Source of the DNA: an uncultured Clostridium sp.
GTDB taxonomy: Bacteria; Bacillota; Clostridia; TANB77; CAG-508
NCBI GenBank assembly: GCA_902496295.1
Contig: CABVAF010000003.1
Coordinates: 3,356-67,355 of the forward strand
Reading direction: 5' to 3'
Length of the DNA: 64,000 nucleotides
Positions 26,347 to 53,385 of this stretch are shown in pieces. The notes under the pieces are model-generated. The model had not been told where the DNA came from. It saw only the letters and a program-made list of their open reading frames with translations, and did no database searches. A program made the translations under genes and the position numbers. Every line of letters starts with the position of its first letter. Positions within the stretch are counted from its first letter, which is position 1.

Positions 26347-26763
26347 TTAGCTTTTAAGCTCCACGTTGATAGCGATGAAGTTTTGTCCGTCTTCGGACTG
26401 TTCAAAAGAGAAACTCTTGACAAACTTGGGATCCGAAAAGTAACGCATTGCGTAGTCCAGAAAGGCACGCAAATCACCAAAAGTGGACACCATGTGAAAA
26501 CGAACGTAGGAACCGCTGGGAAGGTAAATATCCATACAGGAAATACCTTTCCCGTTGCTGGGAACGTAAAGCTTGTCCTCGATATACCGTCCTTCAGAAT
26601 TGAAACGATGGTAAAAACGAAGAACCGCCTCGCACGAATCAACGCTTCCAAGCGCGTCGATTTGCTCTTTCAGAGCCTTGGACTTTTTGCCCTTCATCTT
26701 GTGCAGCAAAACCCGGAACTGGGAACTGCTGACAATGGGGCTTCCTTCCAAAGATGGAAACAT
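26347..26763 (-). CDS. hypothetical protein encoded in a GC-rich (~48%) island
   Basis: 138 aa with RBS AGAGGT 8 nt upstream of ATG. The composition shift is confined to the CDS plus its 3-prime UTR. No recognisable family. Confidence 0.5.
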   Translation of the reverse strand: MFPSLEGSPIVSSSQFRVLLHKMKGKKSKALKEQIDALGSVDSCEAVLRFYHRFNSEGRYIEDKLYVPSNGKGISCMDIYLPSGSYVRFHMVSTFGDLRAFLDYAMRYFSDPKFVKSFSFEQSEDGQNFIAINVELKS

Positions 26764-26961
26764 TGCTGATTACCTCTTTTCTCTATATATTAGGCTAAAA
26801 GCCGTATATTTATTATATCACAAAAATATATATAAAACAAATATATTATAAAATTAATATAAAAACAATAAAACAAAATTCGACTAATTATACTATATTT
26901 ATCATTTTTTTGGTGTTATAATGTAGTTGTGTGTAAAATTTGAAAAAGAGGGGTATATTTA

Positions 26962-37897: not shown

Positions 37898-38893
37898 TTA
37901 CTTGTAGATATGGACAATCCCAGGTCCACCAGCGGAAATCATGGAATTGTCATACCAGATGTTCAGTCCGAACGCTTCTACGACGAAGCGAGCGGGCACC
38001 AGGGTGCGATTCCCAGAAATCATTGGAGCAACCGCCATTTGCAGCCACTTACCGTCATACCGCATATATGGATATGCGATATAGAGGTTAATAACGTGGC
38101 TCCTATTGGAGATGTTCACCTGCTGAGCTTGTCCGCCAACCCACTTAACATCGTAGCCAAGCATATCACCAAGGCTGTACACTGGAATCATGGTGTATCC
38201 CGGATCCACCACAATGGGTTGCTGGTCAGGGAAGTTTACGCGCTCCCCGTTCAACATAACGATAATCGGCGTGCGACCATCGTTGTTGATAAATACGCTA
38301 TCATCATAACGATAGTACTTGTATCCTAGAGCTGTTGCCCACTGCTGAAGAGTCTGATAAGTGGTATTGGCGTTCGAAGGAACCGTTCCGAAAATTGCCT
38401 TCAAACTATCGGTTTGAGGGTAGTTGACGTAGACGTTGGAGTCATTGCTGCCAAAACGATAGGCAGCATTGGAAACGTAATAACCGTTCCTGTACACCTT
38501 TACGGTGTTGATAAATGGCTCATCATCGTCATAGTCAGGATCGTCAAGAACCGGATCGTCGTAATCTCTACCGTCCGAGTAGAGATATACTTTATTATTT
38601 TTCACGTTGAAATCATAGCCAAATTCGTCTGCCCAATCACTCAGGCAAACATCATCCTTGGGGCTGGCGCTGAGCACGTCCTCGGTTTCGTCCGGAAAGA
38701 TTTTACGAATGTCATCCCAGGACTCCACCCAGACATCGTCGTGCCGGTCAAGGTAAGCGTTGTTTACGCCAGTGTAGTCGTTGTCAACGTACACCTTCAT
38801 GGAGCCACTTGCAGCAAATGCCACAGTGCTCATGGAGAAGACCATAACTACCGCAAGAAGGGTAGAGATAGCCCGTTTGATGTTCTTAAACAT
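37898..38893 (-). CDS. secreted protein with C-terminal copper-amine-oxidase N-terminal-like (Cu_amine_oxidN1) domain; GC-rich (~50%) gene
   Basis: Signal peptide MFKNIKRAISTLLAVVMVFSMSTVAFA. C-terminus ...APMISGNRTLVPARFVVEAFGLNIWYD matches the stalk-domain pattern. RBS GAAGGAGG. Confidence 0.6.
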   Translation of the reverse strand: MFKNIKRAISTLLAVVMVFSMSTVAFAASGSMKVYVDNDYTGVNNAYLDRHDDVWVESWDDIRKIFPDETEDVLSASPKDDVCLSDWADEFGYDFNVKNNKVYLYSDGRDYDDPVLDDPDYDDDEPFINTVKVYRNGYYVSNAAYRFGSNDSNVYVNYPQTDSLKAIFGTVPSNANTTYQTLQQWATALGYKYYRYDDSVFINNDGRTPIIVMLNGERVNFPDQQPIVVDPGYTMIPVYSLGDMLGYDVKWVGGQAQQVNISNRSHVINLYIAYPYMRYDGKWLQMAVAPMISGNRTLVPARFVVEAFGLNIWYDNSMISAGGPGIVHIYK

Positions 38894-50719: not shown

Positions 50720-51385
50720 ATGAGAATTAGGTTTAAACCATGGGCAAGACCAGAATTAGAGGCAAGTAAATTTTATATAGATAATCCAGAAGAATATAAA
50801 GGAAAATGGAGACAAGCTTTTAAAGAAAAAGAAAATGAATTGCATTTAGAATTAGGATGTGGCAAAGGAAGTTTTATATCACAATTAGCAGTTAAAAATC
50901 ATAATATAAACTACTTAGCAATAGATTTAGTAGATGCAATGCTTGGATTAGCAAAAAGAAATATTGAGCAAAAGTATGAGGAAATGAAATCGGAAATTGA
51001 CAACATTATAATAACAAGATATGATATAGAAAGAATTTTTAATATTCTAAGTATAGAAGACAATGTAACAAGAATATATATAAACTTTTGTAATCCATGG
51101 CCTCGTGGAAAACACCATAAAAAAAGACTTACACACATAAGACAATTAGAAAAATATAAGCAGTTTTTACAAAAAAACGGTAAGATATATTTTAAAACAG
51201 ATGATGATAGTCTATTTGCAGACAGTTTATCATATTTAAAACAAACAGGTTTTATTATAGAAAATTTTACATATGATTTAGAAAAAGAAGAAAATTTTTG
51301 GGATAATATTATTACAGAACATGAGCAAATGTTTATGAACGAAGGAATAAAAATAAAAGCAGTTATAGCTAGATTGGAGGAATAA
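50720..51385 (+). CDS. trmB: tRNA (guanine46-N7)-methyltransferase
   Basis: LELGCGKGSF SAM-binding motif. 221 aa. Confidence 0.8.
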   Translation: MRIRFKPWARPELEASKFYIDNPEEYKGKWRQAFKEKENELHLELGCGKGSFISQLAVKNHNINYLAIDLVDAMLGLAKRNIEQKYEEMKSEIDNIIITRYDIERIFNILSIEDNVTRIYINFCNPWPRGKHHKKRLTHIRQLEKYKQFLQKNGKIYFKTDDDSLFADSLSYLKQTGFIIENFTYDLEKEENFWDNIITEHEQMFMNEGIKIKAVIARLEE

Positions 51386-52734
51386 TGGAAATAATTAATT
51401 CTATAATAAATTTTTTTAAAAATATTACAACAGAGCAAATTTTAACAATGGGAATATCAGTTGGAATTATAATACTTTTTTGTTTATTTAGTTCTCTAAT
51501 TGCATATGGAATAATTAAAATTTTTAAGTGGAAAAGCACTAGAAAAGAGATAAAAGAAAATTCATTATATAAGCCAATAAAAACAGTTGTTATTTGGATA
51601 GGACTACATGTTGCTATATTAATTTTAGGATTACCAAGTAATGTGACTTCAATATGCAACAAAATTTTTAGAATAGGAATTATAGTAATATTGGCAATTG
51701 GAATAGCTAATATGTTTTCTCCAGATTCAAAAATATTTAAGAAAATTTCTAACCATAAAAGAATAAAAGGAAACCAAACTCTAATTAATTTTATTAGTAA
51801 GGTAGCAAAAGGAGTAGTTTATGTTATTGCAACACTTTTAATAATGACAGAATTAAACTTTAACTTAGGTGGACTTGTAGCAGGACTTGGGCTAAGTGGA
51901 GTTATAATTGCATTAGCTGCTCAAGATATCGCAAAAAATTTATTTGGAGGAATGGCAATTATACTAGATAAGCCATTTTCAGTTGGAGATTGGATACAAA
52001 CTGCTAACTATTCTGGAACAGTAGAAGATATAACTTTTAGAAGTACACGTCTTAGAATGACAGATAATACTGTTGTTACTATACAAAATTCTACTTTATC
52101 AAATGAACCTGTTATAAATTATGCTAAACTTCCAATGAGAAGATATTCAACAACACTTAATTTAGCACTAGAAACAAATTCTGATGTTGTGGAGAATATA
52201 ATAGGAAAGTTAAAGTTTGCTCTTTCTAATACAGAGGGAGTAGTTGTAAGTGGACTTAATGTATATTTTCAAAAAATTTCAGAGGATGGTATAGAAATAG
52301 GAATATTTTTTAACACAAAAATTGTTTCATATAATGAATATTTGGCTTTTTGTGAGCAAATTAATTTGTTATTACTAAAGGTATTAGAGTCTGAAAATGT
52401 TAAACTATCATATCCTACACAGAAAGTATATGTAGCAGATAAAAATGATTTTAATGAAAATAGTAAGAAACTTTCTAAAAAGAATGTTACTAAAAATGAC
52501 AATATAGAGAAATTACTTAATGATAGTATAAATAAAAATATAGATGAATTAATAAATGGTAAAAAAGAAAATAATACAAATAATAAGTCTACTGCTGAAA
52601 AAGAAAAGAAAAAAAGTGCTGCTACATTAAGTAGTAAAATAGTAAAATCGGCTAAAAAAGTTTCAGAAGCAATTGTTAAAGTCGAAAGAAAGCAAAAAAA
52701 CTCGAAAAATGTAAATGATAAAATTACAAAATAA
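51385..52734 (+). CDS. MscS-family mechanosensitive channel
   Basis: TM segments followed by the MscS beta-domain pattern (GDWIQ...GTVEDITFRSTRLR) and a lysine-rich tail. Confidence 0.7.
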   Translation: MEIINSIINFFKNITTEQILTMGISVGIIILFCLFSSLIAYGIIKIFKWKSTRKEIKENSLYKPIKTVVIWIGLHVAILILGLPSNVTSICNKIFRIGIIVILAIGIANMFSPDSKIFKKISNHKRIKGNQTLINFISKVAKGVVYVIATLLIMTELNFNLGGLVAGLGLSGVIIALAAQDIAKNLFGGMAIILDKPFSVGDWIQTANYSGTVEDITFRSTRLRMTDNTVVTIQNSTLSNEPVINYAKLPMRRYSTTLNLALETNSDVVENIIGKLKFALSNTEGVVVSGLNVYFQKISEDGIEIGIFFNTKIVSYNEYLAFCEQINLLLLKVLESENVKLSYPTQKVYVADKNDFNENSKKLSKKNVTKNDNIEKLLNDSINKNIDELINGKKENNTNNKSTAEKEKKKSAATLSSKIVKSAKKVSEAIVKVERKQKNSKNVNDKITK

Positions 52735-52830
52735 GTAAACAAATTTGCAAATATATGGAAAATGGTGTATAATAGTTATATGAGTTCCTCATGAGGGTGA
52801 GCATTATATTGTAGAGAGGACTAGATAGAT

Positions 52831-53217
52831 ATGGTAAATATGGAACCCAAGCAGGCAGAGGTAATGAAGCAGCTGCACGAAATGCGGAATAAAGGCCACT
52901 TTTCCAGCATCGAGATGGAGGAGGAGAGCCTTTGGATGGAGGTAACGGAATTGCTCCGTACCACCATTCTCTTCAGCGAAGCGCCCCTCATGCGGGCCAA
53001 GATCATGATTTTCCAGAATTGGGACAAGGTAAACCTGAGTTATCGCCTGGGTGGCGACGACAAGTCGCTGGTACGCCAGTTCGCGCTGGAGTACAGCCCC
53101 AATCGCATCAGACAGTTGGAAAACCGTGCCATCCGGAACGGTTACAAGACCAAGTATAGCCCGCCGGACGCGGATTACAAGGCAGGACTTCTCGAAATCG
53201 AGCTTGATCTCGCCTAA
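52831..53217 (+). CDS. hypothetical protein encoded in a GC-rich (~50%) island flanked by inverted repeats
   Basis: 128 aa with RBS AGAGGA. Extended -10 TGTATAAT at 52763-52770 and GC-rich terminator at 53274-53303. My manual count places the ATG one nt earlier than the ORF track. Confidence 0.5.
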   Translation: MVNMEPKQAEVMKQLHEMRNKGHFSSIEMEEESLWMEVTELLRTTILFSEAPLMRAKIMIFQNWDKVNLSYRLGGDDKSLVRQFALEYSPNRIRQLENRAIRNGYKTKYSPPDADYKAGLLEIELDLA

Positions 53218-53273
53218 GGTGTAAAACCAAGGACGAGTTTTGGAACTCTAACTGATGAATAATGCTCACTCTA

Positions 53274-53303
53274 ACCCCCGTGCTGTTGCGCGGGGTAATT
53301 TTT
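53274..53303 (+). terminator. Rho-independent terminator
   Basis: CCCCGTGC-TGTT-GCGCGGGG hairpin then T6. Confidence 0.7.
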
Positions 53304-53385
53304 TGTCAAAAAATATTTTTTTGTTCACAATATAGACATAATAAATAGTTATAATATATAATAATTATGTGTTATGGAGGTAAAT

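Follow-up and report, generated by a model that had tools for sequence, protein, structure and literature searches.

An orphan gene with a maintained GC-rich transcript and pairing untranslated regions in uncultured, very AT-rich gut Clostridia

Why does one short gene of a very AT-rich gut bacterium have a base composition so unlike that of its surroundings? The question is raised by a locus in a 64,000-nucleotide stretch of DNA from an uncultured Clostridium sp. (GenBank assembly GCA_902496295.1, contig CABVAF010000003.1, positions 3,356 to 67,355), which we call the window and whose own coordinates are used throughout. GC content in 200-nt segments is 0.50-0.55 within 52800-53299 and 0.20-0.30 on either side, and the highest GC peak of the whole window is found here (0.575 against a mean of 0.285). 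The island, at about 52780-53302, has the size of one transcript and holds a single open reading frame (ORF) of 128 amino acids, which we call gene X. When part of a bacterial genome deviates in composition, it is commonly taken as a sign of horizontal transfer. An earlier reading made from the sequence alone (hereafter the sequence-only reading) had correctly picked out a GC-rich single-gene island with codon usage far from that of the host; GC content at third codon positions (GC3) is 0.72 in X and 0.12-0.17 in the five adjacent genes. It had also offered two meanings for an inverted repeat around the gene, namely the ends of a small mobile cassette or pairing between the 5' and 3' untranslated regions (UTRs). 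Our analysis shows X to be an old protein gene with a maintained composition and paired UTRs. The explanation we favor, and hold to be probable by a small measure, is that its mRNA has been selected to be closed and heavily folded, which would make it long-lived or restrain its use.

The ORF is a genuine protein gene. In a codon alignment of 12 lineages, variable columns make up 60%, 40% and 95% of first, second and third codon positions, and the proportion of nonsynonymous differences (pN 0.07-0.24) is well below that of synonymous ones (pS 0.45-0.89). Because third positions vary far more than second positions and pN is so far below pS, the ORF encodes a protein under purifying selection, with a ratio of nonsynonymous to synonymous substitution rates (dN/dS) of about 0.07-0.14 where synonymous sites are unsaturated. 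Homologs were found in 13 clusters at 63-98% identity by protein search and in 21 with a profile, all of them unnamed and from metagenomes or metagenome-assembled genomes (MAGs). A full HMMER scan of 1.84 billion cluster representatives gave seven matches only, from the window's lineage or its syntenic relatives. Searches of X and its distant members against Pfam, NCBIfam, PHROGs, PADLOC and PDB profiles returned no match above noise, in line with the sequence-only reading, which could assign the protein to no family. A moderately confident AlphaFold model (mean predicted local distance difference test score, pLDDT, 76; predicted template modeling score, pTM, 0.67) has two N-terminal helices followed by a beta-beta-beta-alpha-beta-beta unit, and X is best read from it as a soluble, hydrophilic alpha/beta protein of 128 amino acids with no detectable family. 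The best-conserved residues gather in YSPNR, NGY-TKYSPPD and GLLEIE. The only contextual hint to the function of X is its fixed place beside a two-component system.

Several database "proteins" of this family (P0013-P0016, P0018 and P0020, with the loci L010 and L019) are gene-calling artefacts. Some are extended at the 5' end through the open 5' UTR (MCDIIIERIDIK...), others represent a frameshifted or truncated gene of the CAG:273 type, and a 144-amino-acid call at 977-1411 of L019 holds an in-frame stop. An initial guess that the segment is RNase P, transfer-messenger RNA (tmRNA), 6S RNA or another large non-coding RNA was ruled out by Rfam and ARAGORN. No Rfam match reached the gathering threshold anywhere in the window, a search near the locus at E<=10 gave only noise (E 2-9), and ARAGORN found no tRNA or tmRNA in the window.

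X is old and has descended vertically within a narrow group of gut Clostridia that are uncultured and very AT-rich. It occupies one syntenic site in all 26 related loci fetched, with the same orientation in each and with the gene order DnaJ, diaminopimelate (DAP)-dehydrogenase-like, Sua5, TrmB, MscS, X, OmpR-type response regulator, histidine kinase and ATP-binding cassette (ABC) transporter. The most distant members (P0017, P0019 and P0023, 30-33% identical) are found at the same address, TrmB-MscS-X-response regulator-histidine kinase, or TrmB-X in one lineage. In that lineage, represented by P0019 (L023 and L024), X directly follows TrmB and there is no MscS gene; it keeps a complementary 5'/3' helix and a GC3 of 0.36 against 0.15 in its neighbors. 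Since helix and composition are kept where MscS is absent, both travel with X and not with MscS. Where MscS is adjacent, pairwise protein distances of the two genes are correlated (r=0.86, Spearman 0.80, 66 pairs), X evolving about 1.4-2 times faster. GTDB representatives with the family are Clostridium sp. CAG:273 and an uncultured Clostridia MAG.

There is one copy of X per locus and none elsewhere in the window, where neither repeat motif recurs beyond chance. Phage and plasmid collections gave no DNA or protein match to X, and no transposase, integrase, recombinase or target-site duplication was seen near it (no recombinase gene within about 5 kb). The mobile cassette with terminal inverted repeats was therefore rejected on its fixed site, single copy, co-divergence with MscS and lack of phage or plasmid relatives. 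The sequence-only reading had proposed to check whether close relatives have the same gene with native composition and no repeat. The outcome is mixed: orthologous loci do carry the gene, but GC-richness and repeat are both retained in them.

The composition of X is at equilibrium, maintained and not decaying. GC3 is 0.48-0.62 in the other close lineages, 11 in number, and the deep clades have 0.36-0.48; across 15 lineages it ranges over 0.36-0.73, with neighboring genes at 0.11-0.19 everywhere. GC content at second codon positions is normal (0.32), so the anomaly lies in synonymous sites. Averaged over 14 lineages, the promoter has a GC content of 0.19, the 5' UTR 0.35, the coding sequence (CDS) 0.46, the 3' UTR 0.36, the terminator 0.59 and the 60 nt that follow 0.16, which confines the raised GC to the transcribed region, and in the 6-10 kb around X in relatives it is the sole GC island. 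Synonymous sites are saturated between subclades and the composition still persists. Changes polarized by parsimony comprise 140 from AT to GC (W>S) and 144 from GC to AT (S>W), and the window's own lineage has gained GC (16 changes against 6). A gene relaxing to a GC3 of 0.15 would show about seven GC-to-AT changes for each reverse change, as estimated with our own two-state mutation model. The near balance of the observed changes means that no amelioration of a foreign gene is under way. With an island that is old, vertical and at equilibrium, either selection or a very local bias must hold GC3 some 40-55 points above the genome level.

The four bases are almost equally frequent at third positions of X (A about 0.2, C 0.24, G 0.31, T 0.25), against A 0.47, C 0.05, G 0.09 and T 0.39 in the host. 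X has 3 CGC, 3 CGG, 5 CTC, 5 CTG and 3 CCC codons; the same codons number 2, 3, 3, 12 and 7 in the 16,683 codons of 48 ordinary genes of the window. The host-preferred TTA, ATA, AGA, CAA and CCA are strongly avoided in all orthologs, and X also avoids CTA.

The segment is best read as one complete chromosomal transcription unit with the following parts.

52745..52773, + strand: sigma-A-type promoter, with -35 TTGCAA at 52745-52750, a 17-nt spacer and -10 TATAAT at 52768-52773 (10 of 12 consensus matches)
52780..52792, + strand: 5'-terminal hairpin AUGAG-UUC-CUCAU, which includes GAGTTCC at 52782-52788; present in the minimum free energy (MFE) structure of 12 of 14 lineages
52794..52807, + strand: 5' strand of the closing helix, AGGGUGAGCAUUAU, whose inverted-repeat partner is 53259-53272; pairing probability about 1.0 in 14 lineages
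52812..52820, + strand: Shine-Dalgarno (SD) region UAGAGAGGA, invariant columns in the window's clade
52831..53217, + strand: CDS (ORF) of orphan protein X, 128 amino acids, GC 0.53, GC3 0.72
53242..53251, + strand: 3'-UTR element GGAACUCUAA, invariant in 11 lineages; contains GGAACTC at 53242-53248
53259..53272, + strand: 3' strand of the closing helix, AUAAUGCUCACUCU, which terminates 3 nt upstream of the terminator stem
53276..53302, + strand: intrinsic terminator, an 8-bp stem with 7 GC pairs at 53276-53295 and then a T/U run

Transcription would start at about 52780, judging from the promoter. X does have a promoter of its own, as the sequence-only reading had said; the extended -10 described there is not canonical, since its TG abuts TATAAT directly and does not form TGnTATAAT. 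The promoter is AT-rich and resembles those of the host. Its block TTTGCAAAT...GGTGTATAAT is kept in all close orthologs, and the deep clades have TTGAAA-17-TATAAT instead. The GC-rich terminator that had been reported is there, and its stem shows compensatory changes at two pairs across lineages. The MscS gene (51385-52734) ends 10 nt before the -35 element with no terminator in between, and read-through from it into X is possible.

What, then, is the inverted repeat? It is present and longer than had been reported (14 nt, not 11-12), with positions that had been given one base too low throughout. Its arms, AGGGTGAGCATTAT at 52794-52807 and ATAATGCTCACTCT at 53259-53272, make 13 Watson-Crick pairs and one G-T. 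The claim that it exceeds chance expectation holds: the UTR-UTR duplex has an energy of -30.2 kcal/mol against -17.1 +/- 3.4 kcal/mol in 500 shuffles of the 3' UTR (p=0.002), of which 499 gave a weaker duplex. A second pair of short repeats, GAGTTCC and GGAACTC, also exists, at 52782-52788 and 53242-53248 rather than at the positions first reported. The 7-mer pair is not significant by itself, yet both 7-mers are invariant in 11 aligned lineages with saturated synonymous sites.

Comparison across lineages supports a UTR pairing that is maintained by compensatory change, in line with the second of the two proposals of the sequence-only reading. The closing helix is placed alike in 13 of 14 lineages: the best duplex between 5' UTR and 3' UTR opens 11-16 nt from the presumed start of transcription, stops 0-4 nt short of the terminator stem and is in each case better than expected from shuffles (p<=0.018). 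Full-length partition-function folds give the helix a probability of about 1 in all 14. Three unrelated helix sequences take the same position: AGGGUGAGCAUUAU/AUAAUGCUCACUCU in the window's clade, GGUGCAGGC/GCCUGCACC in L020/L025 and UGAUGUAGGCA/UGCCUACAUCA in L023, so that the sequence has been wholly replaced in two deeper clades. Within the window's clade, an 11-sequence alignment has both-side changes at three of eight scored pairs and 95.5% of cells paired; the observed covariation score was reached in none of 500 shuffles, and pairing is lost when the partner strand is slid. The changes include C-G to U-A in L011 and L012, A-U to G-C in L018, and G-U to U-A or C-G at the second pair, and L009, L010, L013 and L014 have matched insertions on both strands. 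Cells that are not Watson-Crick are mostly G-U on the plus (sense) strand, a pattern that suits an RNA helix better than a site of recombination in DNA. In the 5' hairpin all cells are paired, with G-C to G-U changes only, and the L020/L025 clade has the hairpin UAUGAG-UUCG-CUCAUA in the equivalent place. The transcript ends are predicted to form a three-helix junction of 5' hairpin, closing helix and terminator, with almost no unpaired nucleotide at either end.

The message between these ends is also unusually foldable. The MFE of the X CDS is -125 kcal/mol, against -45 to -92 kcal/mol for host genes of equal length. Compared with shuffles of synonymous codons within the gene, the CDS has a negative z-score in 15 of 15 lineages (-1.1 to -5.1, mean -2.3); 14 ordinary host genes have a mean z of -0.36 (Mann-Whitney p about 1e-4 against X, or 6e-4 if each subclade is counted once). 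When the full transcript is compared with dinucleotide shuffles, z is -4.3. Folding in excess of synonymous shuffles is not expected from selection for rare codons alone, and this favors selection for a heavily folded message. A conserved structure in the interior, for example pairing of UUUCCAGAA with UUCUGGAAA between the FQN and LLEI codons, was considered and set aside, its RNAalifold support being weak and mostly one-sided.

A further element may add translational control. GGAACUCUAA occurs once in the window. All 11 aligned lineages of the window's clade have it unchanged, in a 3' UTR that otherwise differs among them both in sequence and in length (21-68 nt); L020/L025 and L023, the deep clades, lack it. 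Its GGAACUC is complementary to the 5' GAGUUCC and its CUCUA to the UAGAG that flanks the SD. The two pairings overlap and are therefore mutually exclusive, and a three-element switch of anti-SD, anti-anti-SD and 5' hairpin may be encoded here. No covariation is seen in the helix that RNAalifold places between the SD flank and the 3' element (columns 38-42 and 489-493), and none of the three elements varies. Pairing of GAGUUCC with GGAACUC would cross the main helix as a pseudoknot, which the folding used here cannot score, and the two were treated as alternatives.

How might these observations fit together? In the explanation we favor, a 5'-terminal hairpin would be followed at once by one strand of a helix of 9-14 bp whose other strand lies just before the terminator, so that both ends of a transcript of about 520 nt would be locked. 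Selection at synonymous sites would hold the transcribed region, and nothing else, at a near-uniform base composition. Such a composition would make the CDS fold about twice as stably as host genes and would force the use of codons that the host almost never uses. A closed and structured mRNA of this kind would be expected to resist the 5'-end-dependent and AU-directed ribonucleases of Firmicutes, with translation damped. The outcome would be a long-lived message of low output or conditional use, by analogy with the 14-bp interaction in the hbs mRNA of Bacillus subtilis. In the window's clade, pairing of GGAACUCUAA with the 5' GAGUUCC or with the SD flank could serve as an added translational switch.

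Several points weigh against this explanation. The start site, 3' end, half-life and translation of the X mRNA are things we infer from sequence, as are the stabilizing role, the switch and any role of the X protein. Among the 14 control genes, two have z-scores that overlap those of X, and the lineages do not count as independent. The CDS interior is without convincingly conserved structure (RNAalifold -48.8 kcal/mol against -184 kcal/mol for the single sequence, with sparse covariation). Selection is for this reason proposed to act on general foldedness and the end clamp, not on a specific RNA machine, and general foldedness is harder to prove. Predicted masking of the SD by the 3' UTR is inconsistent across lineages; the mean probability of being unpaired is 0.37 in the full-length transcript and 0.47 without the 3' UTR. 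Parsimony polarization is unreliable at saturated sites. The composition could also be held without any part for RNA stability, by gene conversion biased toward GC or by selection for the rarity of the codons.

Rare codons are the basis of one rival explanation, which we regard as unlikely but live. GC-ending codons would be kept for their rarity, and scarce tRNAs (for CGG, CGC, CUC, CUG and CCC) would limit X to some physiological state, a control that may be likened to that of bldA over UUA codons in GC-rich Streptomyces. The UTR helix would then be a stabilizing feature in its own right. The contrast between the codon counts of X and of the 48 ordinary genes speaks for such gating, as do the avoidance of host-preferred codons in all orthologs and the like usage of other GC3-rich genes in the window. 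However, third positions are near uniform and not maximally rare, T-ending codons are as common as in the host, and gating by codons predicts neither folding above synonymous shuffles nor raised GC in the UTRs; the window has no tRNA genes from which tRNA supply could be gauged. Another live alternative, to which we give a rather low probability, is that the transcript serves chiefly as a structured RNA with a regulatory or scaffolding role, closed by a P1-like stem and of RNA-like GC content (45-53%), with a translated ORF in addition. Its base composition is like that of structural RNAs in AT-rich genomes, it has a covarying closing helix and a dedicated promoter and terminator, and its folding z-score is negative in every lineage. 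A dual function of this kind is hard to reconcile with the lack of any Rfam match even at E<=10, the weak interior consensus, and third positions of which 95% vary freely, leaving little space for RNA motifs in a gene whose conservation tracks amino acids. Both alternatives are compatible with a closed, heavily folded message.

In a further rival, X would be harmful or growth-arresting if freely made and would be encoded, as in hok and aapA, by an inert and very stable full-length RNA that is kept shut by 5'-3' pairing and activated by 3'-end processing. A long-distance 5'-3' interaction and a metastable 5' hairpin are hallmarks of the hok and aapA mRNAs (PMC6733600), an interaction that would lock the full-length mRNA is found here, the invariant 3' element is complementary to the SD flank and to the 5' hairpin, and rare codons would keep output low. 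We nevertheless consider a toxin-type message improbable: X is a hydrophilic alpha/beta protein of 128 amino acids and not a short hydrophobic peptide (under about 60 amino acids), PADLOC gave no match and SD masking is inconsistent. Scans of the sequence showed no conserved antisense promoter or antitoxin RNA; the minus strand has weak promoter-like sites on variable codon positions and no terminator. Horizontal acquisition, or a mobile cassette with inverted repeats at its ends, is suggested by the sharp compositional island, the foreign-looking codons and a repeat on both sides, and is very improbable and largely refuted. Besides the reasons already given, the chromosomal site is identical down to 30% protein identity, only seven representatives occur among 1.84 billion clusters, W>S and S>W changes are about equal, and the repeat arms differ between clades yet stay complementary, with G-U tolerated. 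Finally, the left arm of the repeat is flanked on its outer side by the promoter and the right arm by the terminator, as might be expected if a recombinase flipped the 450-bp segment between the repeats relative to a fixed promoter as an ON/OFF switch. With one orientation in 26 loci, no recombinase gene within about 5 kb, mismatches that are G-T on the sense strand, and arms whose position is tied to the 5' hairpin and terminator in every clade, an invertible switch is scarcely credible.

X is one of five single-gene GC3-rich islands (GC3 0.40-0.72) among about 53 genes of the window, the other 48 or so having a GC3 of about 0.15. The four others use the same set of rare codons. Their positions, GC3 values and products are as follows.

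10168-10620, + strand: GC3 0.40, stand-alone Spo0A_C-domain protein
26347-26763, - strand: GC3 0.55, orphan protein of 138 amino acids
28815-29309, - strand: GC3 0.47, probable lipoprotein of 164 amino acids with a coiled coil
37898-38893, - strand: GC3 0.57, secreted protein of 331 amino acids with a Cu_amine_oxidN1 domain

No coding region of the window exceeds the gene at 26347-26763 in excess folding: its z is -4.5 relative to synonymous shuffles, with an MFE of -131 kcal/mol per 390 nt. This gene has a strong terminator, and its promoter (TGATATAAT) is of the extended -10 type. It overlaps a 128-amino-acid ORF on the plus strand (26383-26769), and with long ORFs on both strands either may be the coding one. 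A metagenome scan for its relatives gave one 99% identical copy (L027), which is uninformative on long-term composition. Candidate UTR clamps on the other GC-rich genes are within chance for the space searched, the best being of 10 bp (37898-38893) and the repeats of 26347-26763 being AT-only.

X may be the clearest member of an undescribed class, in which chromosomal genes of ultra-AT-rich gut Clostridia have the whole transcript held by selection at an RNA-like, near-uniform composition; we put this forward tentatively, as a possibility that is itself doubtful. A literature search on conserved GC-rich genes in AT-rich Firmicutes found no description of the phenomenon. If the class exists, its members would form a dedicated expression tier of nuclease-proof, end-clamped messages that depend on rare codons, and these messages might be stored, translated only in a particular state, or act as RNAs too. 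On the question of what selection acts on at synonymous sites, whether the folding and decay of mRNA or the supply of rare tRNAs, X itself is an uncommonly clean natural example. It also adds to the short list of bacterial mRNAs with an interaction between 5' and 3' UTRs, by way of covariation across three clades of an uncultured gut lineage. The protein founds a new orphan family of about 21 clusters at 90% identity with a fixed address beside a two-component system. Annotation pipelines that flag such segments as foreign DNA or candidate non-coding RNA would misfile X.

The genes on both sides have features of their own. The MscS homolog has a long C-terminal tail of low complexity, rich in lysine and asparagine (encoded by 52440-52734). 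Downstream, the promoter region of the response regulator-kinase operon (53320-53372) contains GTTCACA at 53323-53329, TAGACA at 53333-53338 and TATAAT at 53357-53362. This region is near-identical even in a deep clade where X is about 33% identical (compared in L011, L012, L018, L020 and L025), and it is probably the binding site of the OmpR-type regulator itself.

Several known systems resemble X in part. Structured non-coding RNAs that stand out as GC islands in AT-rich genomes share with it an island delimited by the transcript, a promoter, a closing stem, a terminator and a significant folding z-score; they differ in that X has a strong protein-coding substitution pattern and no Rfam match. 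In icaR of Staphylococcus aureus, a pyrimidine-rich 3'-UTR motif is complementary to the mRNA's own SD region, and the pairing covers the SD itself and triggers cleavage by RNase III (PMC3868564). X is alike in that CUCUA of its 3' UTR can pair with UAGAG beside the SD, and unlike in that its main helix lies upstream of the SD and beside the terminator and that its possible SD-flank pairing is invariant. The hok/Sok and aapA/IsoA systems, the latter from Helicobacter pylori, likewise have a full-length mRNA closed end to end with a 5' hairpin and a possible 3' anti-SD element (PMC6733600), and a compact fold expected to be very stable. Their products are short hydrophobic peptides in place of the soluble 128-amino-acid X; no antisense RNA partner was found for X in scans of the sequence, and SD sequestration is not consistently predicted.

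The closest resemblance is to the hbs mRNA of B. subtilis, in which a stretch of 14 nt directly behind a 5' hairpin is paired to one immediately upstream of the terminator, and the pairing limits cleavage by RNase Y in vivo (Braun, Durand and Condon 2017, PMC5737220). X has the same layout of one or more 5' hairpins followed by a strand of about 14 nt that pairs just upstream of an intrinsic terminator, and both are small monocistronic genes in a Firmicute. An effect on cleavage by RNase Y or RNase J has been shown for hbs; the helix of X is supported by phylogenetic covariation, not by mutagenesis. A further difference is that hbs encodes a known HU-type protein and X an orphan. To our knowledge, hbs has not been reported as a compositional outlier in its genome. 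X belongs to a known kind, that of mRNAs with a long-range interaction between 5' and 3' UTRs, and what is new in it is the combination of a maintained synonymous composition delimited by the transcript with an orphan protein.

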